Of a DNA stretch of 64,000 nucleotides, positions 2,394 to 17,975 are shown one piece after another (within the stretch, counting starts at the first letter, position 1; each line of letters starts with the position of its first letter). The notes below the pieces were generated by a model that was not told the origin of the DNA, ran no database searches, and saw only the letters and a program-made list of their open reading frames with translations. This DNA is from a virus. Taxonomy: Duplodnaviria; Heunggongvirae; Uroviricota; Caudoviricetes. The stretch is taken from IMG/VR virus record IMGVR_UViG_3300045988_154391. One strand, written 5' to 3'. Made by a program: the position numbers and the translations under genes.

Positions 2394-3878
2394 TCATTCA
2401 TTAAGCCATGCCAGAGCTTCATCAACCTGCGCTTCGTCTTCGACGCTAAGCACTTCATCCTGGGGAACATAATCCGCCAGCATAGCGAAACAATATGTAT
2501 CCCAATGGTCTGGTGAGTGCAGGTTGAGTTTTTTCTTCATATCCTCCTTACTCATCACCTTCCATTGACCTGCGGAGTTAATCCCTACAGGGATTTTCGA
2601 CGCTTCCTCAATAGTTTCATTACCCTTATCCAGTCTCATACGACCAGATTTTACGGCCTCTGCGGCTTGAACGTTGGCATAAGCACGTTTATCAAAGTAC
2701 AGGCTCTTATCTTCACGGCTATGCATCTTTTTACCCCAGCGTATACGCTGTACGGTAATACCATAATACTCGTACATCAGATCCGCCGTTGCTTTACCCA
2801 GCCCATCACCGTCTATCGCTATGGTGATATTTGGAAATCGCTCAGGATTACATTCTGCGAAAATTTTGGCGGCAAGCTGCGTTTCTGTAACGTCTGTGTA
2901 TTCCAGCATTCGATAGTTGATTACACGGCGTTTATTTCTCTGGCCGGACACCATCATGATATTGATAACGGACTTATCCCGTCCCGTACCACCAGCAACG
3001 TCCACACATGCAAGCCAGCCCCATCCTTTGGCAATCTTGACTTTCCGCCGCGTCGCACGTTCAACCTCATCACGTCCAAGAAGGAAGCCATCCTGTGATT
3101 TAGGGAATAGTCCGCGTACCTTAATCATGTACATAGGGTTATCACGCCCGCCGTACTCCGCCAGCTTCATTTTGATAAATGCTGGCGTTACCAGCGGTGA
3201 TTCCTCACTGTTAAGCGTGATCGCCGTATAAACGCCATCAGGGTTACCAGGACGCTTGGCCAGTTTATGGTGAGTATCGTAGAAATAGCCGCTTGGGCGT
3301 GTAGGCTGTGACAGTAATAAGATGCGGTTATCCTGTCCGGTAAGAGCACCGGTGATGATACCGAAAGCTCTATCACTGACACCGGAGGCTTCATCGATAA
3401 TATACAGAAGATGATCTGCGTGTTCACCGGCGAGAGCTTCTTCACTTCCCAGACGAAAGCCCTTCGGTACTACAGTCCATACACCTTTACCAGTAACCTC
3501 ATAGAAAGCGGTTTCTGTCAGAACAAAATAATCAGCAAGCCATGGAAAACGGCTGGTGGCAGTAGCCCAGTTTATCTTGATGTACTTGAATATACCGGTC
3601 ATTACCTGCTGAATTTTGTTCGCAACGATAATGGCGCGGGCACCGGGATACATGATTATGAACAACATGATCATGATAGAAGTCATGTCTGATTTCCCGG
3701 TACCGTGACCAGACGAAACAGATGTCTTGCTACCCTGTTCCTGCACAGACTCAATAATCAGATCCTGCTGCCAGGTAGGTGTTTTGCCGAACAAAACATC
3801 AGCGGCAGCAATCCAGTCATAACGATATAGCGCCACCAGCTCGCGCCAACGTGGATCCGTTACGCAACTTCTGGCCAT
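2394..3878 (-). CDS. pacB: Terminase large subunit (PacB-like)
   Basis: 494 aa; Walker A-like SGHGTGKS; sits directly after pacA with a 1-nt overlap; size matches what I recall for P1 PacB. Confidence 0.75.
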
Positions 3879-5071
3879 TAATCATCATCCCCGTATAGCT
3901 TGCGGGTAACTTCTTCGTCTTCCTCCTCGTCTTCGTCCAGGTCTTGTTCCAGCCATGGGTCGTTTGATACACCTTCAGTATCAACATCTCCATAACCGCC
4001 TGTATCAACGATATCGGCGATTTCTTCCCTACGCTGCTCAATCCACAATGCGGCATCGGCGCGGCGGTTGGCGGCCCGTTCTCGCGCAACTTTGTCCAGA
4101 TCTTCAAGAGAAGGGCCACCGACGGCTGTTTGCCTTTCCTCATCATCGGTATTGGTCTTAGGAGCACGCAGATCGGCTTTGATTTGCTCCAGCATCAGGG
4201 GCGGCACTTTTCCGCCATGCGCCTCGATGAATTCAGCTGCTTCCAGCACTGACCAGTTATTTTCACGCTTTCGTTCGTATGCCAGCTTAACAATGCCAGC
4301 TTGCCCCATAGATAAAGCGTGCTTTTCCGCCTCCCGGCTTTCTTTTCGATAGTTATTCCGAATGCTGTAAATGGTGTTGATCAGGCTGCTTATCTGCGCG
4401 GAACAGCTGTTTAGCATGCTCGCGATACGATATTCAGGCGGAGTCCCTTCATCATCGTCTTTTTGCTGATCGCGCATTTCCTGCACCAGACGAATACACG
4501 TATCCCTGGCGTTCTCCAGCATAAGGAGATGAGAAAGAGACTTTTCCAGAAGAGTGGTTTCCAGAACATCGGCCCCGGACCGACGCAACATAGCGCGCGC
4601 GGCCTTCCGCGCTTCAACGTTATCTATCAGGTAATCGCCAGCTTCGAATTCAAAGCGTTCACCATCATCATCCAGGGTGTCGCGTTCCAGGCGATCACGT
4701 AAGGTCCGGTGGGCGCGGGTGATCACGTCATGATCATCAGAACGATCATTTATGCGCTTATTTTGGCGCTTCGCATTCTCGACTGCGGCACTGACAACGG
4801 CATTAACCCTTTGTTTTTCCGCTATTTCAGCCGCAATGTGATCACCTGCATGTTGATCATTAGAGTGATCAATGATCATGCTTTTTAGTGGCTTCCTGAC
4901 TGGCTTATTTGGCTTGCGGCTGTCCGCTGTCCTGGTGTCTTCTTTGAAGGCACGGAGATAACGACGTGCAGTATTAGGGTTAAGATTAAACTCGGCGGCA
5001 TACTGTGCGATGGTGTAACCACCATCTCGCGCCAGGCGAGCAAAATTCTTCTTGTGATCGTCCCAGGTCAC
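3878..5071 (-). CDS. pacA: Terminase small / pac-recognition subunit (PacA-like)
   Basis: 397 aa; N-terminal HTH-like segment; acidic C-terminus; contains the GATC-hexamer pac site. Confidence 0.7.
4690..4880. other. pac packaging site: two clusters of four GATC-containing hexamers about 95 bp apart
   Basis: GATC at 4693, 4721, 4732, 4744 and at 4840, 4855, 4867, 4874, mostly as TGATCA/C/T; matches the Dam-regulated P1 pac architecture inside pacA. Confidence 0.6.
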
Positions 5072-8139: not shown

Positions 8140-8391
8140 TTATTTTTTTGGTGCATCCTCGTTCTGATACACCGGATCGCTCCCTTTTGGCAACTGGAGG
8201 CTTAACTGCCGATAGTGCCGTAACCGTTCCATGAAATAGGTGCGCAGGTTTTCCGGTTGCTCACGGGCCACCTGCTCTGCAATCACAGGTATATTCAGCC
8301 GTTCTTTGTAAGCAACGCCGCTGGCGGCAAGGTCTACGTTCACCTTGTCTCGCTCTTCCTGGCTTTTAGCTGCTATATTTCGATCTGACAC
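8140..8391 (-). CDS. hot: Homologue of DNA polymerase III theta subunit (HolE-like)
   Basis: 83 aa; [21 protein letters not shown]...REQPE shared with E. coli theta as I recall it. Confidence 0.75.
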
Positions 8392-8423
8392 AAGAAACCT
8401 CCAGGAGTTAGTGGATCAGGCAC

Positions 8424-8774
8424 ATGCACAATAACGTTCTCAATGTTAGCCGTTCAATTCAGACAATCAGAGACTGCACCAGTGTGGTGGCATCAATCCC
8501 ATTGCGGAACAGCATAGACGAACTGCAAATTCGTGTATTGAATCCGAATCAGGCTAATAAGCAATTGCGCTTTATTTTGACGCTGAAAAGTGAAACAGAG
8601 GGGATAAAGCACAGCGTAAAAGTGTTTTCTGAGGCCATTCTGCTTAATGGGAAGCTCCGGCATCTGGTAAGGCCAGAACGTCAATATCCTGACGTCCTGG
8701 CGCGTGAAAAAGACCTTCTTTCTGAAGTTCAGGATAGGGTGATCGATTTCGTCAAATGCTATCCCCTGCATTGA
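8424..8774 (+). CDS. Hypothetical protein
   Basis: 116-aa ORF; overlaps an antisense ORF (8493..8771), so coding strand is ambiguous. Confidence 0.3.
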   Translation: MHNNVLNVSRSIQTIRDCTSVVASIPLRNSIDELQIRVLNPNQANKQLRFILTLKSETEGIKHSVKVFSEAILLNGKLRHLVRPERQYPDVLAREKDLLSEVQDRVIDFVKCYPLH

Positions 8775-9043
8775 GGGCAGGTGTTCCCTTCCGCAAAGTA
8801 GGGAAAATTGCTATCAAGTTCATCACACCATCTGCGATGGTCGTAGCACCAAAACGCCTCCCACGGTGCACGGAAATACTTCATCCACCAGGACACTCGA
8901 TCAGGTATATCTGCTGGTGGCAGTTCTTCTGGCAATAATTTGCCTGATAATTCCCTTTCCGCCCGCGACAGCATTTTTTTGAGGCTCGCGTTCTCTTTTT
9001 CAAGCTCATCTACGCGCACCTGTAATTCAGCTTTCGTTGGCAT
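8759..9043 (-). CDS. Hypothetical small protein
   Basis: ORF 8759..9124 trimmed to an internal Met to limit overlap with the upstream gene. Confidence 0.3.
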   Translation of the reverse strand: MPTKAELQVRVDELEKENASLKKMLSRAERELSGKLLPEELPPADIPDRVSWWMKYFRAPWEAFWCYDHRRWCDELDSNFPYFAEGNTCPQCRG

Positions 9044-9965
9044 GGTCCACCTCATGCTTTTCAGCCACCAGCGGCAATAAAGCCCTGGCCATCTTATGAA
9101 CCAATAGTGCATCAATAATGCCAAGCGTATGCCCCGGCTTAATGTTTAATGCCGCCTCAAGGTGACACCTTTCCAGGTCACTTTTCTCGGCTTGTTTATG
9201 ATGATCTGGTGTAATAACGTCGCCCAAAACACGGCTAATTCTTTCTCGTAATTGCTGGGTGCCAGCACACTTGATCGCTGTATCGTGGAGACGGTTAACC
9301 AGTTCGCGATAAACATGCGGCTTAATGCGGATACGTTCACCGGTGACGCCCTTTCCTGGCGCTGGCACCGAACTATCCGGAATATCCGGATAGTTGCCAG
9401 CCTCGTAAGCTACCCACAGCCAGTGCATGAATGTTTCAGTGGACACACAACCACAGTCCACATCGATTTTCCCGCGTTGCTGTTCCAGCCATTGCCCAAA
9501 ATCCAACCTGTAAGTCTTACTTTCAAGTTCATCACCATTGAACTCGACTTTCTGCGACGCTATGAGAGCTGATTCGTATTGTTCGCGAGTGACAACTGAC
9601 TGGTATTCATCGCTATCAAGGCCACCAATTGGAAGCTCAATCTCACAACAAAAATTGCGCCCAAAGAAAGTGTCTTTTTTGTGGTCTGAGCCAAAAGCAA
9701 AAGTCGCGCATGGTGCCATTAAATTGACACTGGGTAGGTAACAATAACTCATTCCATCAGGCCACCCGCCGCACTTAGGCAGCTCCTTCACTAACAAGTC
9801 GATAAACTTCATTTTTTTATCATCTTTGCAAGCCGCCAAAGCCATTTGGGCAAGTGCCAATACTTCATCTGCCGTATATCCAGCACCGTGACCATACATT
9901 TCGATACGGGAAATAATCTCTGATATACGCTCTTCAGTGATTCTGGTCATTTCTTTTTGCGCCAT
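9027..9965 (-). CDS. Hypothetical protein
   Basis: 312-aa ORF in the co-directional leftward block. Confidence 0.5.
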   Translation of the reverse strand: MAQKEMTRITEERISEIISRIEMYGHGAGYTADEVLALAQMALAACKDDKKMKFIDLLVKELPKCGGWPDGMSYCYLPSVNLMAPCATFAFGSDHKKDTFFGRNFCCEIELPIGGLDSDEYQSVVTREQYESALIASQKVEFNGDELESKTYRLDFGQWLEQQRGKIDVDCGCVSTETFMHWLWVAYEAGNYPDIPDSSVPAPGKGVTGERIRIKPHVYRELVNRLHDTAIKCAGTQQLRERISRVLGDVITPDHHKQAEKSDLERCHLEAALNIKPGHTLGIIDALLVHKMARALLPLVAEKHEVDHANES

Positions 9966-10321
9966 TTCTTTTCACATTCCTTAGTCCATTTTTCAATGTT
10001 CATTTTGGCAATATCAGTCATTCCATCACCTAAGAAATACTTTTTCCGGTACGTCTTGCACTTAAACCACACTACAACAGCCACCAGCCAGAAAATAAAA
10101 GGCCATACGGCAATACCAACTCCAGCCGCGATAAAGCCCAATATCCATAAATGAAGCTCTCCAACTTCTGTTTCCGGCAATATTCTTAAAGAATTAAACA
10201 GCAGGCTGAACGAATGGTCGTATGCATTGGCAGTATAAGACATGCAATCCATATAATTAAAGTCATAGCCTGCGGCTGCCGCCCATAATGGGCGGTCAAG
10301 AAAATGTTTTAGTGTCATCAT
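9947..10321 (-). CDS. Hypothetical membrane protein
   Basis: 124 aa; hydrophobic core FIAAGVGIAVWPFIFWLVAVVVWF; lysine-rich C-terminus. Confidence 0.45.
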   Translation of the reverse strand: MMTLKHFLDRPLWAAAAGYDFNYMDCMSYTANAYDHSFSLLFNSLRILPETEVGELHLWILGFIAAGVGIAVWPFIFWLVAVVVWFKCKTYRKKYFLGDGMTDIAKMNIEKWTKECEKKWRKKK

Positions 10322-10327
10322 ATTAAT

Positions 10328-10621
10328 TTAAGGTTCAGACCAGTTATCTTCAATAGCAATGCTTAATCTTTGTAGCCATTCTGCTAATTTCAGCATTGCT
10401 TCTCTTTCGCTTAAACCACACGGAAAATCATCAAGCGATATTGTTGGCTTGAAGTTTCCCAAATTATCCATTTCAACGGTCAGATTTTGCTCCAGAACGG
10501 TATTTCTTACGCGGCTATTGTGCCGAAGCAAATATACTGAACGTGATTTATTGGTTTTGTGGTCGAACGTATATTCGGTAAGTATCATCTGACTTCCGCC
10601 ATGATTATTACCGCGCCACAT
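10328..10621 (-). CDS. Hypothetical protein
   Basis: 97-aa ORF in the operon-like array. Confidence 0.4.
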   Translation of the reverse strand: MWRGNNHGGSQMILTEYTFDHKTNKSRSVYLLRHNSRVRNTVLEQNLTVEMDNLGNFKPTISLDDFPCGLSEREAMLKLAEWLQRLSIAIEDNWSEP

Positions 10622-10644
10622 AATTACTCCGTGTTAATTGAAAT

Positions 10645-10926
10645 TTAGCTATTAATCTTCACTTTTATCGCGTACACCTTTACCGGTTTATCACCGAAGT
10701 GTGGATGTGTGATTGTTTTTATTTCATATCCGTTATACGGGACGTCAATTCTGCGACTGAAGTCTTCGCGCTTCGGATATCCCTTTGTGATAATCAGGCG
10801 GTCATACTCGCGGAACATAATTCGCTTATTCCAGTAGTCATTACACAGGCGATACTCTTCCGTTTTCTCTCCGCGAATCATGGCATCGAAGTATTCACCT
10901 TTAACGGCAAGTTGCAGGTTAGCCAC
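10645..10926 (-). CDS. Small ASCH/PUA-like domain protein (putative)
   Basis: 93 aa; YFDAMIRGEKTEEYR resembles the ASCH N-terminal signature. Confidence 0.4.
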   Translation of the reverse strand: MANLQLAVKGEYFDAMIRGEKTEEYRLCNDYWNKRIMFREYDRLIITKGYPKREDFSRRIDVPYNGYEIKTITHPHFGDKPVKVYAIKVKINS

Positions 10927-11206
10927 GACCTTCCTCCTTTGGCTTGTGAATTTGTATCGTCATGCCGCTTTGAGTGGTGACTACAACGACAGAACCAGGC
11001 TGAAGACTGTTAAGATTGAATGCTTCGTAAAACGAAGCCAAGGCCAGCGCTTTTTTATTCTTTCGGTTCCACCAACGCCATCCATTGCTACAGGCTACAC
11101 TGACAATCCACTGTCCACTCCTGTAAGCCATATAAAACCAGATGAGCAAAACCTGAATGAATGCTATCCAGTCAATAATCGTATATTTCGCGAAGGAGAC
11201 CATCAA
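10919..11206 (-). CDS. Small membrane protein, paralogue of ORF 12804..13127
   Basis: 95 aa; one hydrophobic helix then a conserved ...A..FYEAF.L....PG... domain; 4-nt overlap with the preceding Ea22-like gene. Confidence 0.45.
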   Translation of the reverse strand: MMVSFAKYTIIDWIAFIQVLLIWFYMAYRSGQWIVSVACSNGWRWWNRKNKKALALASFYEAFNLNSLQPGSVVVVTTQSGMTIQIHKPKEEGRG

Positions 11207-11775
11207 TTAACCTCCTGCGGCGGTTCCGGTAGAGGCATCCAGTACAAGGCGTTCCCTAACCACGATAAAGTGCCGTCGCTCAACTCCACGTATTCCCCTT
11301 GTACCTGTCCTGCCATATACTCGCCGTGCTTTGAATAAATTAAAATCCAATCATCTTGAGCGGGCATTCGCTCACTACAGCTTATCCAACCATCCGGAGT
11401 TACCGGATAGTTGCCCGACAGCTCGTTCAACTTGTAAGTTTGGCTTACAGGTTCGGCTTCCAGTTCTGCAATGCGCTTCTCTGCAGCTTCCAGCTCAACG
11501 CGCAGCTTCCCTACCGTTAGCGCAATTTCCTCGTTCTCCTGGTCGCGGCGTTTGATGTATTGCTGGTTTCTTTCCCGTTCATCCAGCAGCGCCAGCACGG
11601 TTTCTGGTCCGGTCAGAAATTTGAAGGCGTTGAGCGCATCAATATCCACACCGTAATCCTTAAGTTCCTGTTCACTTAACAAATCATCATCAACTGGCAA
11701 CATTAACAGGCGTTCCATTGCCGGAATTGCACGTTCTGCCGCCTCACGCAGTGCCTGATAGTTAATTTTGGTCAT
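11203..11775 (-). CDS. Ead/Ea22-like protein with C-terminal DUF551-like domain
   Basis: 190 aa; N-terminal INYQALREAAERA; coiled-coil AELEAE; C-terminal WISCSERMP...WMPLPEPP. Confidence 0.55.
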   Translation of the reverse strand: MTKINYQALREAAERAIPAMERLLMLPVDDDLLSEQELKDYGVDIDALNAFKFLTGPETVLALLDERERNQQYIKRRDQENEEIALTVGKLRVELEAAEKRIAELEAEPVSQTYKLNELSGNYPVTPDGWISCSERMPAQDDWILIYSKHGEYMAGQVQGEYVELSDGTLSWLGNALYWMPLPEPPQEVN

Positions 11776-11776
11776 A

Positions 11777-12076
11777 TCACATCCTCCTGAAGCCGTTGCA
11801 TTTACGTAAAAAATCGCAGATATAGCCCTTCATTTTTTCGTGCCAATCTCGATCATTCCCATTGCACCAACCATCAGGTGGAGTCCAGTTTTCTATCAGA
11901 GCAGCCATTTTCTTTGCTTTCGCCGGAGTAGCTGTTGCGGTATCGCAGTAATGACGAGTGTCAACCAACGTATCCATACCATCGATATCAAGTACGCAAA
12001 ACCATGTGTGATTCGGCATTTCAACAGATGGTATTTGTTGCCCACGTCGACGTTTATCAATAAGACATACAGTCAC
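11777..12076 (-). CDS. Hypothetical protein
   Basis: 99-aa ORF, tightly packed between two Ea22-like genes. Confidence 0.4.
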   Translation of the reverse strand: MTVCLIDKRRRGQQIPSVEMPNHTWFCVLDIDGMDTLVDTRHYCDTATATPAKAKKMAALIENWTPPDGWCNGNDRDWHEKMKGYICDFLRKCNGFRRM

Positions 12077-12807
12077 TGGTTGCCTCCTTTGCGAAGCTGG
12101 GCAGCAAAGTCAACTAACCACTCAGTCATTTCAACCTTCCCTACCAGGTCTGAACCAGGGTGCATACAGCAATCACTCTGCGCCGCTTTGAAATCCTTAT
12201 ACTCATATTCTTGGGCCACCAGATTTTTTGCAGCTTCTATAGCAGCATCCACGCCCTGCGCCCGCACTTCAGCCAGGAAAGCATCGGTGGCTGGCATATT
12301 TCCTGTTGCCTTCATGGCCTCCAAAATAACCAGAACGCCATCTCGCCCAACCACCTCAGCGATAACCTCAGTGTTGTCGCCAACAACATCGCAGAATGCC
12401 TGAACTGCCTTACGAGCCAGCTCATTCTCCACTGCCAGCGCCGTGCGATTACCCTCCAGCTCTGCAATGCGCTGTTTTGCGGCATCCAGTTCAATCGACA
12501 ATTTTTCCAACTGCTCTTGATGCTTCTTGTATTCCTGATATGCGTGCCAAGACTGACCTTTGCGCACACTATCAGTGATATCAGTAATCTGTTCTGGTGT
12601 TAGCGTGGTCAGTGGCTGTGATGGGAAAATAAGCACTTTCCCGGAATCCCAATCAAAACCAGCGTGAATTGACTGAACCTCAACTGAAGGTGTTGAACCA
12701 ATGCTGCCAGGCGAATGAACAACGATTGTTACATCCATATCGCGACGATGGCTGTGGTTGTTGGACAAAATACGATTCACCAACTCAGAAAATTTGGAAA
12801 ATTTCAT
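12073..12807 (-). CDS. Ea22-like paralogue
   Basis: 244 aa; coiled-coil AAKQRIAELEGNRTALAVENELARKA; shares ATDAFLAE(I/V)RA with ORF 13091..13966. Confidence 0.5.
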   Translation of the reverse strand: MKFSKFSELVNRILSNNHSHRRDMDVTIVVHSPGSIGSTPSVEVQSIHAGFDWDSGKVLIFPSQPLTTLTPEQITDITDSVRKGQSWHAYQEYKKHQEQLEKLSIELDAAKQRIAELEGNRTALAVENELARKAVQAFCDVVGDNTEVIAEVVGRDGVLVILEAMKATGNMPATDAFLAEVRAQGVDAAIEAAKNLVAQEYEYKDFKAAQSDCCMHPGSDLVGKVEMTEWLVDFAAQLRKGGNQ

Positions 12808-13127
12808 GCTGATTCCCCTTTCTCTGCTCTCTCCTGTCGGAACATCACTATCATCAGGTCGCCTTTTGTCGCTATCCTGGCTGTTGTACCTGGTTCAATG
12901 CGGCTAAGCTCAAATGCGTCATAGAACGCTTCTAATGCCTTCTGGCGTAGTTCCTGTTTGCGCCGTTTTTTCCACTGTTTTAGGAAAATGGAACCCAGCC
13001 ATCGCCATGTGCGGGACATGATGTAAAGCCAACCGAGAAGTGCCAGACCGGTATTTAGGAGCGTATCGATCGTTATTGTCGTGTCGATATTCACTGGCTG
13101 CTTCCTTTGCGAATCTGTTCCGCCCAT
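12804..13127 (-). CDS. Small membrane protein, paralogue of ORF 10919..11206
   Basis: 107 aa; hydrophobic helix then ALEAFYDAFELSRIEPGTTARIATKGDLMIVMF; overlaps the 3' end of the preceding Ea22-like gene by 37 nt. Confidence 0.45.
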   Translation of the reverse strand: MGGTDSQRKQPVNIDTTITIDTLLNTGLALLGWLYIMSRTWRWLGSIFLKQWKKRRKQELRQKALEAFYDAFELSRIEPGTTARIATKGDLMIVMFRQERAEKGESA

Positions 13128-13966
13128 TCTTCAAGGGATTTCTCCGCATATTCACCAGACAGGCCATCAATCGGATGCGCTTCATTAGCCAACTCTTCTT
13201 TCGCTGACAAAATCATGCGTGTAACGTCGAAAACTTCACGCAAAGACTTATTGATAAATCCGTGATTGAACGCAGCAGCAAGACGGCTGGCGGTATAGTT
13301 AATCCCCTCGTTGCGTGCTTCCGCACGAATTTCAGACAGGAAAGCATCGGTGGCTGGGGTTTCGACATTAGGTCGAAGCTCATAATCACAAACTCTTTCA
13401 ATCCATGGTGATACTCTGTCGCATTTCCTCTTCTTGCGTTCACCGACCTTGGTTGCCTGCTGAATAATTACCCCCCAGCAAATGCTTTCGACCTCTTCGC
13501 TCCATCCATCGCAAGCATCGCCTCTATAGTCGTCAATTGCAGCCTCAGCAGCAGCGATAGCCTCCTCAGCAGTTTTGTGACACTCGAAACTAAATTCAGA
13601 GCCATATGAGAAATACATAGCCCCGGCCTTCAGCGCCGCATTCTCCGCTGCCAGCGCCGCGAGATTAGTCTCAAGCTCTGCAATTCGACACATAGCATCA
13701 ATATTTGTGTCCTCCAGGCGCTTAATTTCACCAAGCAGCTCCAGTGCAACCTTTGGGTTGAACGCGGCAACATAACGAGCGTTGTTCTCTGCATTTTTCT
13801 GTCCATCAAAGCCGGTCCATTTGATAACGTCTTCACATCGTTCATCACCGGGCGTGTGCACCGCATAAGTACCAGTATCCGTCGAAATAAATGCGACCCA
13901 TTCGTCTGGTGTTGCCTTTTCTGCCGCCTCACGCAGTACCTGATAGTCAATTGTCATTCTCGCCAT
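13091..13966 (-). CDS. Ead/Ea22-like protein
   Basis: 291 aa; N-terminal DYQVLREAAEKATPDEWV; coiled-coil RIAELETNLAALAAENAALKA. Confidence 0.55.
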   Translation of the reverse strand: MARMTIDYQVLREAAEKATPDEWVAFISTDTGTYAVHTPGDERCEDVIKWTGFDGQKNAENNARYVAAFNPKVALELLGEIKRLEDTNIDAMCRIAELETNLAALAAENAALKAGAMYFSYGSEFSFECHKTAEEAIAAAEAAIDDYRGDACDGWSEEVESICWGVIIQQATKVGERKKRKCDRVSPWIERVCDYELRPNVETPATDAFLSEIRAEARNEGINYTASRLAAAFNHGFINKSLREVFDVTRMILSAKEELANEAHPIDGLSGEYAEKSLEEWAEQIRKGSSQ

Positions 13967-14598
13967 CCTTCACAGTTGTAATCACTACAGCCTTCAAAAT
14001 CATATGGGCTGTACTGCCAGGTTATTTTTCCGCAATGCGGACAATTCCAACGCACCTTCCCGCTTCGCGACTTCTTTCTTCTGTTTTGCTTTTTCAACCA
14101 GTCAGGCATGACCAAACCTGCGCCCTGAACCATTGTTCTGCGGTTAAAGTTATTGATATTGAACGTCCGGCGCTTTGCTGCATCAGCAATGGAAAATGGC
14201 AACCAAACTATTCCTGGTTCGTTTTTGTTGGCGACGCTAAAGATGGTCGCTTTACTGAAGTCATCTGTTGGCAATCCACCGTGTTGAAGCCAGTAAACAT
14301 CGTTGCCGTTCCAGCTACCTTTTTTGTAGGCCACATACGCAGTGCAATCTGACTCAATCAGGCTTTCTGTAGGGATGTACTGGCAATCAACGTGCCACAC
14401 AGCCATTGCATCCACGCTATCAGCGCAAACAGGCTGATCGATATCTCGTCCACAATTCCAGGCTTTTTGGGCTGCTTCCAGCGTGTAAACATGAGCGCGA
14501 TCGATATCAGAACTGTAACCATTGCCGTTATGGCAATGGAATGAGGCGTTATTACCCACAGTTTCACGCAAGCACATCATGTAAAAGCGGTTATTCAC
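13954..14598 (-). CDS. Hypothetical protein with C-terminal Cys-rich zinc-ribbon-like motif
   Basis: 214 aa; CPHCG...C..YNC near the C-terminus. Confidence 0.45.
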   Translation of the reverse strand: MNNRFYMMCLRETVGNNASFHCHNGNGYSSDIDRAHVYTLEAAQKAWNCGRDIDQPVCADSVDAMAVWHVDCQYIPTESLIESDCTAYVAYKKGSWNGNDVYWLQHGGLPTDDFSKATIFSVANKNEPGIVWLPFSIADAAKRRTFNINNFNRRTMVQGAGLVMPDWLKKQNRRKKSRSGKVRWNCPHCGKITWQYSPYDFEGCSDYNCEGWRE

Positions 14599-14806
14599 TG
14601 GATGCCTCCCAGCAAATTTGTCTTATATAAGAACTGTTAACGCGCTTTACTTTCCCGTCGAACTCCAGTTTCTTTAGACGACGCAAAACGTATGCCGTTT
14701 TGAGTGTGCGATATTTATCCCTAAGCCAGTTGGTCACGACGTAAGTCATACAGCGCCCGTGTTCTTCCAACACCCGAACTATTTCTTCGTCGGTTGGCTT
14801 GCTCAT
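14591..14806 (-). CDS. Hypothetical small basic protein
   Basis: 71-aa ORF, overlapping neighbours by a few nt. Confidence 0.4.
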   Translation of the reverse strand: MSKPTDEEIVRVLEEHGRCMTYVVTNWLRDKYRTLKTAYVLRRLKKLEFDGKVKRVNSSYIRQICWEASSE

Positions 14807-15024
14807 TTTGTCGCTCCTTCAGCTTTCTCTACTTTCGCTGCCATGATTTCCAGCTTTTGTGCTGCCGATGCCGCTAACCTGTGAAATTCATCATCTGTTT
14901 CAACTGGAATTGGTACAAACCTGACACCAATTTGAGCAAGGCTATGCGCCATTTCGAGACTTGCTCTTAACTCTGCTGGGGATGCTTTATTCAGGCCGAC
15001 TTCCTCACAAATAACTGATTGCAT
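14803..15024 (-). CDS. Hypothetical small protein
   Basis: 73-aa ORF. Confidence 0.4.
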   Translation of the reverse strand: MQSVICEEVGLNKASPAELRASLEMAHSLAQIGVRFVPIPVETDDEFHRLAASAAQKLEIMAAKVEKAEGATK

Positions 15025-15033
15025 ACGCTCGCC

Positions 15034-15639
15034 CTACTGAATACGCTCAAACTCGATTACCCAAACCCAGGGATTAGCACTCCAGCTTTCTTCGCCGTAG
15101 ATGGATTCCCACAGGCGCTGGAACGCAACCTTGGCCATTGCGAAATCCCCCTTGGGAGTAAGGAATGTTCCCGGGTGATCAGGAAGCAAACTTCCAGCAG
15201 GCGGAACGCCCTCATCCCTTGCATCGCATTCGCTGATATCGTTCAACCGCTCAACGCGCACGTTGGTAATTTCCAGAAGAATGCGCGATGCCCAGCGCGG
15301 CATGTGAATTGATGGCGTCCACTTTTCTGATACTGGTTTATTACAAACCTCGACCGGAACCCGGTGCGTTTGTTCTGTCCAGGAGTTACGCACGCTTGCG
15401 CGATAAACCAGCGTTGCGACGTCCGTCGCTTTGCCATGTACCCGGTAGGTTTCGCGAACCCAAATACGATCGCCCGGTTGACCATATGGACAATGCTTGG
15501 CAAGCAACTCTGCGGCCACTGCCCGTCCATAGAATTTTTCTTCAACAATCCTGCGAGTCTGTGTTTTATTCCCGCCAAGAATTGCCCGGACCATCTCATC
15601 GTTAAAAATCATGCCGCGCTCTTTCACTTCGCCTTTCAT
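15034..15639 (-). CDS. ASCH/PUA-like domain protein (putative)
   Basis: 201 aa; MIFNDEMVRAILGGNKTQTRR matches the ASCH N-terminal pattern; true start is probably the MIFNDE Met. Confidence 0.45.
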   Translation of the reverse strand: MKGEVKERGMIFNDEMVRAILGGNKTQTRRIVEEKFYGRAVAAELLAKHCPYGQPGDRIWVRETYRVHGKATDVATLVYRASVRNSWTEQTHRVPVEVCNKPVSEKWTPSIHMPRWASRILLEITNVRVERLNDISECDARDEGVPPAGSLLPDHPGTFLTPKGDFAMAKVAFQRLWESIYGEESWSANPWVWVIEFERIQ

Positions 15640-15817
15640 GCATCCCCCTTACCCATGTGCGACGATGCCGCCAAAAGTGATAGAGAACAGCCAGAAATAG
15701 ATCGCGGCCATAATGATTTTGAATGCCGTGTTCATATTTTCATCTCCTGTGATTGATTGGATACATGCCGCGCCTTGCGGCATGTTTTTATTTTCACTTT
15801 CTCTGTTTTAAAAATCA

Positions 15818-15834
15818 ATATTTATTAGAGCAAT
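15818..15834. promoter_or_regulatory. C1-operator-like 17-mer (16/17)
   Basis: AtATTTATTAGAGCAAT abutting the 3' end of the HAD-like gene, upstream of ORF 15034..15639. Confidence 0.5.
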
Positions 15835-16340
15835 TATTGTTGATGGAGAAGCGCGTTTTCATACTCCCTGACCATTAACGTAAGCACGCCGTGCCTCCTG
15901 AAAACACGCGCCACTTCAATCTTATCTTCCAGCGCGAACGCGATTTTACTTAGACCAATTTTCTTAAGGAGATCAATCTTTGCTGGGCCGTCATTTCTGT
16001 CATCGGTGGCAGGACGCATAGATAGCAAAGGCTCAGCCCCGTTTGTTACGTACTTCCGCAGCCAGGCTCGTGTTTTATCCCTTGCGATCTCACAGCGCCC
16101 GGTTACAAACCAGACCGTGTAAACGTTAAATAACTGGCGCACAATATCAATAACTGGAGTTATGGGAGTATCAGTGTCACAGGCGAGATTAAACTCGTTC
16201 CAGTCCTTTGTTAATGCACCTTTACCTGGTGGCGGAAGCAAATGCAGTCTGTCTTCAGTTGCCTCTGATATTGTTCCATCAATATCAACTATGACGATAT
16301 ACGGACGTTCCTGGTGTGCGTGTTTATTGAAAATACTCAA
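15834..16340 (-). CDS. HAD-superfamily phosphatase-like protein
   Basis: 168 aa; N-terminal VIVDIDGT, the HAD motif I. Confidence 0.5.
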   Translation of the reverse strand: MSIFNKHAHQERPYIVIVDIDGTISEATEDRLHLLPPPGKGALTKDWNEFNLACDTDTPITPVIDIVRQLFNVYTVWFVTGRCEIARDKTRAWLRKYVTNGAEPLLSMRPATDDRNDGPAKIDLLKKIGLSKIAFALEDKIEVARVFRRHGVLTLMVREYENALLHQQ

Positions 16341-16412
16341 ATGCCCTCCTCATTGGACGAAAAAAATGCTGGTGGGCGCACTCCACCAGCATTAAAAGTG
16401 ACACTGTAACTG

Positions 16413-17675
16413 TCAGCGAACGTAAATAGTGCCGCCGTTCTCTTTTTCCCATGCATCGCTACGTGCATAGCAAACATCGAGAAGTCTTCTTGCCGCTGTT
16501 TCCTCTAAACCCAATTCGACAACCAACTGCTCATGACGGCGGGTAACCACATCAAACAGGGTATGCAGCCCTTTAGCTGCCAGATCATCAATAAATTCCG
16601 GTTCGAACGGCAGCTCTGCCTCTGCCAACATAACCTCTTGCGCCCACTCAACTCGACGGACCAGTTCCGGGCGGCGGCTTTCCATCTCTTTACAGATCAA
16701 TTCATGGAAGAACTCTACCCAACCTTCCGGCTGGAACTCGCGGAAAATGGCCAACGGCTGGAAGTTTGGCATCAACCATTCGTTGATCCGGATATCAATG
16801 GCATAGCCCATGTCGCAGCAGAACTGATAAGCAAAGTCCAGCTTAGAAACGATATAAGGACGCTCGTTATTGAACTCTTTAGGCGATGAGATCCCATAAG
16901 CCAGGAGGCGCGGGAAGAAGGAGATTTGCCCTAACGTCGGATGAAGTTTGCTTGCAGGGAAACGGCGCTCAGTAATGCCATACATTTCCTTCTTGAGCGT
17001 CGCAAATTTGGCATTCTCATTAACCAGCGCGGTAACCTCTGCTTTTTTATTAGCAAATGCCACGCGCGCTTCGCTTGCATCTTTAATAGTTTTTTTGAGC
17101 TGTTGGTTAAGGTCGGCGACCTGCTTACGCAGTTCCTGTCGCTCGCTTTTAGCTTTGTTATAGCGTTTCTCAAGGTTAAAAGGATCAAGTTTCATGATCT
17201 CTTTATATTGAGATTTTAGCGTTGAAATCTGTGAGTTCCGCAGTTCAACCATCGCGGTCATTTCATTGAGTTTTGTTTCCAGCTCAATGCTTATACGTTC
17301 GGCATTATCAGCACGCTGGTTGGCGTCATGCGTCGCATCGTCGATCGCGTCCTGTTGCTGGCGTTTCAAATGTTCAATTTGCAGCTGAAGCTCTTCAATT
17401 TCTTTACCCTTCAGACCGAGATCCAACTGCATATTTTCAGCTGCATCGACCAGGGAGTTATGGCTATCAGCTTCTGCGTTATAAACATCAATAAGCTGTG
17501 CGTGAAGCATCTCCGCTGACTGAACCGCATTATCAAAAAAACGTGCTGTGAGGTCATCACAACTAACGCGGCGTTGCGCGGCCCGGATGTTCTGGATAAT
17601 GGCCGGGATACCGGCATTCAGGACATCAGGGATAGATACATTTTCGATTGATTGGTTTTGTGCTGAAGTGCTCAT
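16413..17675 (-). CDS. Large coiled-coil protein, function unknown
   Basis: 420 aa; long heptad-like central region rich in E, K and Q; globular C-terminal domain. Confidence 0.5.
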   Translation of the reverse strand: MSTSAQNQSIENVSIPDVLNAGIPAIIQNIRAAQRRVSCDDLTARFFDNAVQSAEMLHAQLIDVYNAEADSHNSLVDAAENMQLDLGLKGKEIEELQLQIEHLKRQQQDAIDDATHDANQRADNAERISIELETKLNEMTAMVELRNSQISTLKSQYKEIMKLDPFNLEKRYNKAKSERQELRKQVADLNQQLKKTIKDASEARVAFANKKAEVTALVNENAKFATLKKEMYGITERRFPASKLHPTLGQISFFPRLLAYGISSPKEFNNERPYIVSKLDFAYQFCCDMGYAIDIRINEWLMPNFQPLAIFREFQPEGWVEFFHELICKEMESRRPELVRRVEWAQEVMLAEAELPFEPEFIDDLAAKGLHTLFDVVTRRHEQLVVELGLEETAARRLLDVCYARSDAWEKENGGTIYVR

Positions 17676-17909: not shown

Positions 17910-17975
17910 ATTGCTCTAATAAAAAACGTGATGAGTGTACATCACGTTTTAAAAATATGGAATTATTAGAGCAAT
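17910..17975. promoter_or_regulatory. Pair of inverted C1-operator-like 17-mers (each 14/17)
   Basis: ATTGCTCTAATAAAAAA at 17910-17926 and ggAATTATTAGAGCAAT at 17959-17975, in the gap upstream of the 72-aa and 420-aa genes. Confidence 0.45.

Follow-up and report, generated by a model that had tools for sequence, protein, structure and literature searches.

Phage mosaicism in the Ea22-type and DUF4752 gene array of a P1-like phage-plasmid

Lambdoid phages carry accessory genes in arrays such as the exo-xis region of lambda (orf60a-orf63-orf61-orf73-ea22-ea8.5) and the ea region of the P22-like phages (Lederbergvirus). The Ea22 proteins of lambda and Stx phages are early, non-essential, pro-lysogenic and tetrameric, with variable termini, and Orf63 is pro-lytic (PMC7093339, PMC10834534); lambda ea22 and orf63, as well as P1 pmgT/U/V, are non-essential by CRISPR interference (PMC10695390). 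In P1-like phage-plasmids, the pmgT-humD interval constitutes variable region 8 (PMC9603915). Here we describe a block of genes (positions 10,645 to 13,966) in IMG/VR record IMGVR_UViG_3300045988_154391, a stretch of 64,000 nucleotides (nt) that is referred to as the window and that belongs to a P1-like phage-plasmid. Rather than a new two-gene system, the block is what phage mosaicism ordinarily produces. Taking the explanation as a whole, we consider it likely that the region is part of a leftward, polycistronic run of lambdoid early accessory genes, approximately 5.7 kilobases (kb) long and coupled in translation. This array, of the lambda exo-xis/P22 ea type, follows immediately on pap and an Op88-type C1 operator. 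It sits in the already published hypervariable pmgT region of P1-like plasmids, and its gene families have already been catalogued; particular to the window is only the rare recombinant in which a P22-like segment is stacked on a P1-like array.

Origin of the second gene set

The genes of the block are listed below in order of transcription, with lengths in amino acids (aa). All genes of the array are given as minus-strand open reading frames (ORFs) in window coordinates, and the Pfam cutoff is 27 bits for both Ead_Ea22 (PF13935) and DUF4752 (PF15944).

13091..13957 (the ORF extends to 13966), minus strand: Ea22-type protein 1, 288 aa; Pfam Ead_Ea22, 70.1 bits
12804..13094, minus strand: DUF4752 copy 1, 96 aa; Pfam DUF4752, 143.3 bits
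12073..12807, minus strand: 244-aa mosaic protein (the middle "Ea22-like" protein); PHROG 6026 N-domain, EaE-like C-terminal module
11777..12076, minus strand: DUF7739 protein, 99 aa; Pfam DUF7739, 77 bits; PHROG 1239; GTGA-coupled to the 244-aa gene
11203..11775, minus strand: Ea22-type protein 3, 190 aa; Pfam Ead_Ea22, 104.3 bits, and DUF551, 43.5 bits
10919..11203, minus strand: DUF4752 copy 2, 94 aa; Pfam DUF4752, 117.3 bits; 92% identical to GALLYPH_22 of phage Gally
10645..10926, minus strand: 93-aa protein, an ASCH-domain protein by RefSeq name; PHROG 625; no Pfam or NCBIfam match

A sequence-only reading of this DNA had described three Ea22-like genes in series, the first and third each followed by an overlapping gene for a small membrane protein, and had taken the whole as a duplicated two-gene cassette. 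Its five ORFs are all present on the minus strand, at the positions that it gave or close to them, and the small genes do overlap their upstream neighbours. The DUF7739 gene that follows the middle protein had been overlooked. The two small proteins share a domain, as had been proposed: both belong to DUF4752, they are 28% identical over 80 aa (BLASTP, E 6e-12), and the motif alignment offered for them is sound. The duplication, on the other hand, is contradicted by the low identity of the pairs (about 28%) and by their origins, one being CUS-3-like and the other that of a P1-like plasmid.

These origins are apparent at the DNA level. Positions 12073-16400 of the window are 99.6% identical to the P1-like plasmid pSBF22b (pairwise BLAST), 10655-12294 are 99.0% identical to the P22-like phage CUS-3 (99.8% over 10900-12294) and 9946-10931 are 98.5% identical to the P1-like phage RCS47. 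The boundaries between these segments fall in two zones:

10766..10802, inside the ASCH-annotated gene: left crossover zone (CUS-3 mismatches end at 10765, RCS47-type mismatches start at 10803)
12149..12252, inside the 3' end of the 244-aa gene: right crossover zone (pSBF22b departs from the window at 12148, CUS-3 at 12253 and 12277)

The counterpart in CUS-3 occupies the end of the ea region nearest attR, where hkaH (which has the 3' end of the 244-aa gene in common), DUF7739, Ea22/DUF551, DUF4752 and the ASCH-annotated gene stand in the same order. The shared piece is only 1.4-1.6 kb, and the window's flanks are P1-like. These alignments show that the stretch at approximately 10803-12148 (1.4 kb) was imported from a P22-like phage resembling CUS-3. 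It entered by a double homologous crossover, through short conserved islands common to these gene families, and the recipient was a P1-like backbone in which the first pair was present already. The imported set comprises the 3' tip of the 244-aa gene, the DUF7739, Ea22/DUF551 and DUF4752 copy 2 genes, and the 5' part of the ASCH-annotated gene. Tandem duplication in situ was considered and rejected, as the copies are 28% identical and each has flanks that are approximately 99.6-99.8% identical to a different source. The two DUF4752 proteins are true paralogues by homology, but because their origins differ they are xenologues and not tandem duplicates.

This combination is rare. The whole block is found in only one of 5,426 complete E. 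coli genomes (arrays of a similar kind are present in 3,221 of them), and just 2 of 72,556 plasmid records have a copy-2-type DUF4752 gene (at least 90% identity). When copy number was compared across P1-like elements, typical plasmids were found to have one DUF4752 gene, not two. The common P1-like plasmids (for example pSBF22b, pMTY13773, RCS47 and P7 upf86.8-upf89.5) carry their array in the same place, from pap/Op88 to the pmgT/U remnant, and share its first half with the window (the Orf63-like, 214-aa, Ea22-type 1, DUF4752 copy 1 and 244-aa genes; 99.6%). They differ in that the 244-aa gene is followed by a 162-aa Ead_Ea22 gene and other cargo, with no CUS-3 segment.

The three Ea22-type genes share islands of DNA homology of 36-49 nt (83-89% identity), and one of these, at 12259-12294, coincides with the end of the CUS-3 homology. 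Such islands, together with the repeated gene junctions described below, are obvious candidate substrates for exchange. The flanks of the array match P1, P7, RCS47, SJ46 and hundreds of E. coli plasmids of approximately 90-100 kb. E. coli EC23 plasmid p2 is 100% identical to the window over 10900-14000 and 99.93% identical over 8300-15315; a difference in the array's first gene makes it a close relative only. The sole substantial difference between the two over 8300-16479 is a patch of approximately 230 base pairs (bp) at 15316-15547, in the middle of that gene (201 aa in the window; 242 aa and P1-PmgT-like in EC23), after which 96.7% identity resumes through pap. This patch is a further mosaic joint.

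Composition of the array and its proteins

From 9.0 to 16.4 kb, the window contains an uninterrupted series of minus-strand ORFs. Beyond the block, these are:

15834..16340, minus strand: pap, upstream of the C1 operator
15034..15639, minus strand: PmgT-N-like protein, 201 aa, first gene of the array; 60% identity to the N-terminal 232 aa of P1 PmgT (BLASTP, E 8e-86)
14803..15024, minus strand: lambda Orf63 homologue (DUF1382); Pfam DUF1382, 99 bits; 73% identity to lambda orf63 (tblastn)
14591..14806, minus strand: 71-aa protein, ATGA-coupled to the preceding gene; no Pfam match
13954..14598, minus strand: 214-aa protein, PHROG 2457 (E 7e-119); no Pfam match
After the 93-aa gene, minus strand: three more genes of 97, 124 and 312 aa

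The 201-aa protein likewise has no Pfam match, and its EC23 variant is named an ASCH-domain protein in RefSeq. The 124-aa protein (9947-10321, PHROG 2638) has a predicted transmembrane segment, VGIAVWPFIFWLVAVVVWF, with a 19-residue Kyte-Doolittle maximum (KD19) of 2.38, followed by a lysine-rich tail; the prediction is much stronger than for either DUF4752 copy.

The array resembles the lambda exo-xis region in having an Orf63 homologue (73%) with Ea22-family genes downstream, in the early, repressor-controlled and non-essential character predicted for its genes, and in the C-terminal junction motif '...KG(E)'. Whereas the lambda genes lie between exo and xis under pL, those of the window are in a P1-like plasmid under a C1 operator. 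No homologues of orf60a, orf61 or ea8.5 were found in the window by tblastn, and lambda lacks DUF4752, DUF7739 and a DUF551-fused Ea22. With respect to the P22-like ea region, EaD (63%), EaE (35-65%) and EaA C-terminus/DUF551 (43%) modules are all represented in the window, although P22 itself has no DUF4752 gene (tblastn).

The sequence-only reading had allowed that the block might prove identical in content to reference P1. The block is absent from P1, as is the rest of the array: P1 joins window position ~9408 directly to ~15064 (window positions 9027-9408 and 15034-15639; P1 stretch 3969-5038). Residues 1-232 of P1 PmgT match the 201-aa first gene product, and the remainder of PmgT is unmatched in the 201-aa and 312-aa proteins of the window; P1 PmgU corresponds to the C-terminal 101 aa of the 312-aa last gene product (96% identity, same frame). 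Because the N-terminal part of PmgT and PmgU match the first and last genes of the array, the 'putative morphogenetic' genes pmgT and pmgU of P1 are probably scars of an approximately 5.7-kb deletion of the accessory array.

The description of three Ea22-like proteins requires qualification. All three match PHROG 368, and proteins 1 and 3 belong to Pfam Ead_Ea22, but the 244-aa protein has no Ead_Ea22 match at E<=0.01. Assignment of modules by tblastn against lambda, P22 and Gally shows the three to be shuffles of Ea22, EaD, EaE and EaA parts. Protein 1 has an Ead/Ea22 N-domain, a central helix and a P22 EaE-like C-terminal module (35% identity) that ends in RKGSSQ. The 244-aa protein has a PHROG 6026 N-domain, a putative coiled-coil stretch and an EaE-like C-terminal module that ends in RKGGNQ; its C-terminal 123 aa are 65% identical to EaE of phage Gally. 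It has only the coiled-coil stretch of approximately 50 aa in common with protein 3 (E 6e-5), and the C-terminal module in common with protein 1 (E 9e-5). In protein 3, residues 1-104 (N-domain and putative coiled coil) are 53% identical to lambda Ea22 (E 3e-25) and 63% identical to P22 EaD, and the C-terminus is a DUF551 domain equivalent to the C-terminus of P22 EaA (43% identity). The lambda-type C-terminal domain, an alpha/beta dimer solved by nuclear magnetic resonance, is absent from protein 3, where similarity ends at about residue 104, and from the other two proteins. Protein 1 is matched by more than 4,600 database clusters (E<=1e-5). Neither protein 1 nor protein 3 had a meaningful match among PDB sequences, and an AlphaFold2 model of protein 1 built from a 20-sequence alignment was unusable (mean predicted local distance difference test score [pLDDT] of 41, predicted template modelling score of 0.24).

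In the near-identical EC23 plasmid, RefSeq/PGAP marks the protein 3 ORF (EC23 stretch 2904-3476) as a pseudogene ('incomplete') and lists a 55-aa hypothetical protein apart from it. Since the 190-aa ORF is uninterrupted, is identical in nine IMG/VR loci and is a single coding sequence in CUS-3, this flag on an intact Ead_Ea22+DUF551 ORF is a domain-fusion artefact.

The sequence-only reading had also raised the possibility that the small ORFs were spurious overlapping frames lacking homologues; conserved DUF4752 homologues were found for both. The pairwise alignment and hidden Markov model (HMM) searches that it had called for give DUF4752 as the shared domain and locate DUF551 in 11203..11775. 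DUF4752 is a narrow family: an exhaustive profile search of 1.84 billion proteins yielded 76 representative clusters, all of them small, stand-alone proteins (family size 84-108 aa). The alignment shows a hydrophobic N-terminal segment (…LNTGLALLGW.YI…), a basic cluster (KQWxKRRKQ) and a C-terminal AFYDAF…EPG…β-hairpin, and both length and pattern are kept across Escherichia, Salmonella, Citrobacter and Kluyvera. In the AlphaFold2 model of copy 1 (pLDDT 72.6), a helix spans residues 3-60 and a hairpin residues 71-85; Foldseek searches of this model against PDB and BFVD returned nothing below E 0.001, the best matches being prefoldin-like helices and a 40-aa viral peptide. The KD19 maximum is 1.82 for copy 2, above the usual threshold, and 1.37 for copy 1, below it; among 46 family members, the median is 1.56 and the mean net charge of the regions flanking the helix is -0.6 (N-side) and +3.8 (C-side). 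A single N-out/C-in anchor is thus plausible for the family and borderline for copy 1. A literature search for 'DUF4752' found no paper.

Over-long DUF4752 homologues were considered as informative domain fusions and rejected, as they are frameshift or deletion chimeras. One joins the N-terminus of Pap to the C-terminus of DUF4752, reflecting a deletion from pap into DUF4752 copy 1 in another P1-like plasmid, and two others join a DUF4752 N-terminus to unrelated C-terminal sequence. These chimeras show that deletions are frequent in the array.

Regulation and gene junctions

Two features bear on the expression of the array:

15818..15834, minus strand: C1 operator, equivalent of Op88/OpmgT, ATTGCTCTAATAAATAT, with one mismatch to the consensus; directly after pap
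12070..12099, minus strand: conserved gene-junction sequence …CGCAAAGGAGGCAACCAGTGA…, encoding 'RKG', a Shine-Dalgarno sequence, the stop codon and the next start; repeat families D5 and D7

The sequence-only reading had placed these genes under C1 control. The operator has the same place relative to pap as Op88/OpmgT of P1, in surrounding sequence that is conserved with P1, and it overlaps the only promoter-like match on the coding strand (15862-15833). Repression itself is a prediction. Eleven C1-operator-like sites with at most three mismatches were found in the window (2374-53118), as compared to 0.24 expected. Two of them, at 32122-32149, overlap and are divergent, and another two, at 17910-17975, are the counterpart of P1 Op86a/b upstream of pmgR. 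No sigma-70-like promoter was found on the coding strand inside the block, promoter-like sites in the region are rarer than chance (3 versus 10.9 expected), and terminator-like matches on the coding strand within the block are weak ones only. A search of both strands of 9000-16500 against Rfam gave no match at E<=0.1. Each gene junction has a Shine-Dalgarno sequence with either an ATGA/GTGA stop-start overlap or a gap of at most 23 nt, and the array is consistent with a single C1-repressed early transcript.

The junctions also bear on the choice of start codons. For DUF4752 copy 1, the corrected start is the GTG at 13094, which has a GTGA overlap with the upstream stop and the Shine-Dalgarno sequence AAAGGAAG; the protein is most likely 96 aa long, as in RefSeq, rather than 107 aa from 13127. 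Ea22-type protein 1 most likely starts at the ATG at 13957 (288 aa, ATGA overlap), its RefSeq orthologues being 288 aa as well. Both starts are favoured because they restore the stop-start overlaps seen at nearly every junction and agree with RefSeq. DUF4752 copy 2 probably starts at the ATG at 11203.

The junction sequence CGCAAAGGAGGCAACCAGTGA is present three times, at 12070-12099, 13088-13117 and 14592-14609. A C-terminal 'R/K-G-E/S' motif has been noted in Ea22 proteins, its significance being left unexplained (PMC7093339). This motif is encoded by an AAAGGAG-type Shine-Dalgarno sequence together with the GTGA/ATGA stop-start of the next gene, and the R/K-G-E end of Ea22 proteins is probably a nucleotide-level ribosome-binding and junction signal rather than a protein feature. 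Lambda ea22 ends in AAAGGAGAGTGA, and the alternative frame across this junction reads 'LAFASKESE'. In many prophages this same string stands before the start codon (ATG) of EaA-type genes, although in lambda no gene follows at that place. A strongly hydrophobic 28-codon ORF (15649-15735, minus strand; MNTAFKIIMAAIYFWLFSITFGGIVAHG), with a KD19 of 2.10 and an AGGAG Shine-Dalgarno sequence, separates the Op88 operator/hairpin from the array's first gene. It is conserved in P1, where no coding sequence is annotated in the interval, and may encode a leader peptide or a small membrane protein.

Gene neighbourhoods and possible function

If an Ea22-type gene and a DUF4752 gene formed a conserved pair, as the sequence-only reading implied, the gene upstream of DUF4752 should be constant, but it varies. 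The copy-1-type sample consisted of 79 IMG/VR loci (77-99% identity), 78 of which have an upstream ORF, with 49 distinct upstream proteins. These ORFs encode Ea22-type mosaics (44/78), DUF7446 (17/78), DUF977 winged helix-turn-helix proteins (15/78) or others (2/78), and Pfam Ead_Ea22 is found in 20 of the 49 distinct proteins. Upstream of the copy-2-type genes (77 IMG/VR loci, all at least 91% identical to copy 2), the 62 distinct proteins have very diverse N-termini: DUF551 is found in 55, Ead_Ea22 in only 11 and Lar in 2. Downstream, an ASCH-annotated gene is present in 64 of 68 loci. The most divergent DUF4752 members sampled (approximately 60% identity; Kluyvera, E. coli and Salmonella) are in a different early operon, after lambda-P/DnaC-like and DUF977 genes and before ninB/ninG; an HNH, DUF4406 or unknown gene is upstream and Ead_Ea22 is downstream or absent. 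Because the upstream partner varies and the order is reversed in divergent members, DUF4752, Ead_Ea22 and DUF551 genes are co-residents of hypervariable arrays without fixed order, and Ea22 plus DUF4752 is not a conserved unit. The earlier suggestion of a diversifying module holds only insofar as arrays of this kind are, in general, hypervariable mosaics.

The best-supported reading, by analogy with lambda, is that of an early accessory operon which modulates the host or the lysis-lysogeny balance. C1 bound at Op88 would keep the array genes silent in the plasmid-prophage state, and after induction or infection they would be co-expressed early, as dispensable factors that tune host physiology or the choice between lysis and lysogeny, in the manner of the pro-lysogenic Ea22 and the pro-lytic Orf63. 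DUF4752 would be an independent small N-out/C-in inner-membrane protein with a cytoplasmic helix-hairpin tail of approximately 45 residues and no obligate Ea22 partner. The adjacency of the two would reflect array architecture, in which conserved Shine-Dalgarno/stop/start junctions double as recombination joints.

Several points weigh against this reading. The likeness to lambda Ea22 is limited to the N-terminal and coiled-coil parts, with none of the three proteins having the lambda Ea22 C-domain, and published work holds that Ea22 C-terminal domains differ and may alter function. C1 control and the operon structure are deduced from DNA sequence, and the hydrophobicity of DUF4752 copy 1 is borderline for a transmembrane helix. 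Finally, the DUF551 tail, DUF4752 copy 2 and the ASCH-annotated gene are strongly co-inherited (55/62 and 64/68, as above), which could reflect a real functional module and not mere linkage; as the loci are all at least 91% identical to copy 2, common descent may also be the cause.

Among the alternatives, the one that fares best, although we regard it as unlikely, is that these are early anti-defence or host-takeover factors, with DUF4752 and Ea22-type proteins acting as independent inhibitors of host systems and the shuffling driven by an arms race. The predicted early, C1-derepressed expression would suit such a role, as would dispensability in laboratory hosts. Homologous arrays in P22-like and lambda-like phages share operons with abc1/abc2, ral, kil and gam, and a Lar restriction-alleviation gene is directly upstream of copy-2-type DUF4752 in two distinct loci. 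Mosaicism is extreme (49 and 62 distinct upstream proteins among approximately 78 loci each), but neutral or weakly selected cargo would be equally mosaic. Furthermore, no homology to characterised anti-defence proteins was found in the libraries scanned, which did not include an anti-defence HMM set, and what has been published on Ea22 and Orf63 phenotypes relates to lysis-lysogeny and to survival of the host rather than to evasion of defences.

It is improbable that the large protein and the DUF4752 protein that follows it form a functional two-component cassette, such as a membrane-tethered exclusion or abortive-infection effector, with two versions broadening its specificity. Phage exclusion factors commonly take the form of small single-pass membrane proteins. 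Translational coupling links each DUF4752 gene to the one before it, but the coupling is alike at every array gene and so is not specific to these pairs. The DUF4752 subtype tracks the upstream C-terminal module, copy 1 mostly following EaE-like tails ending in '...RKGxxQ' and copy 2 following DUF551; against this, about 41% of copy-1-type loci have a DUF7446 or DUF977 protein in the upstream position, few of the copy-2 upstream proteins have Ead_Ea22, and the divergent members have the unrelated neighbours described above. The abortive-infection or exclusion role that had been suggested finds no real match among defence models: in PADLOC-DB 2.0, nine of ten array proteins are unmatched and the 244-aa protein has only a 13-bit coiled-coil match (E 0.0036), and there is no real NCBIfam match among the array proteins scanned. 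Moreover, C1 repression through the conserved operator and the lack of internal promoters predict no expression in the lysogen, which argues against exclusion or abortive infection that protects it.

A version in three parts seems to us just as doubtful. Here, the conserved unit would consist of a DUF551 (or EaE-like) C-domain, a DUF4752 anchor and the small protein annotated as ASCH. During early lytic growth, the anchor would bring an oligomeric coiled-coil protein with a variable head to the inner membrane, and together they would act against a host defence or a rival phage. The three divergent DUF4752 clusters sampled speak against such a module. If this were true, a P1-like plasmid with two divergent versions would gain breadth.

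It is very improbable, and largely refuted by conservation, that some of the small overlapping ORFs, or even the block as a whole, are debris without function (spurious frames or decaying genes) at a hot spot of recombination: the third Ea22-type gene is flagged as a pseudogene in the EC23 plasmid, many database homologues are deletion or frameshift chimeras and the whole array has been lost from reference P1, but all ORFs in the window are intact with Shine-Dalgarno-coupled starts, both DUF4752 copies are far above the Pfam cutoff with length and pattern conserved across four genera, and the 190-aa ORF is identical in nine independent viral contigs and CUS-3. A toxin-antitoxin-like pair was also considered and rejected on the grounds given against the alternatives above.

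An early accessory operon of mosaic origin is therefore the reading that we retain. For the roles of Ea22-type, DUF4752, DUF551 and DUF7739 proteins, this locus is no more tractable than hundreds of similar prophage loci. Its value is as a clean, datable case of gene flow between two phage lifestyles, the plasmid-prophage of P1-like elements and the integrating prophage of P22-like phages, in which the exchange ran through homology islands of 30-280 bp inside otherwise unrelated genes.

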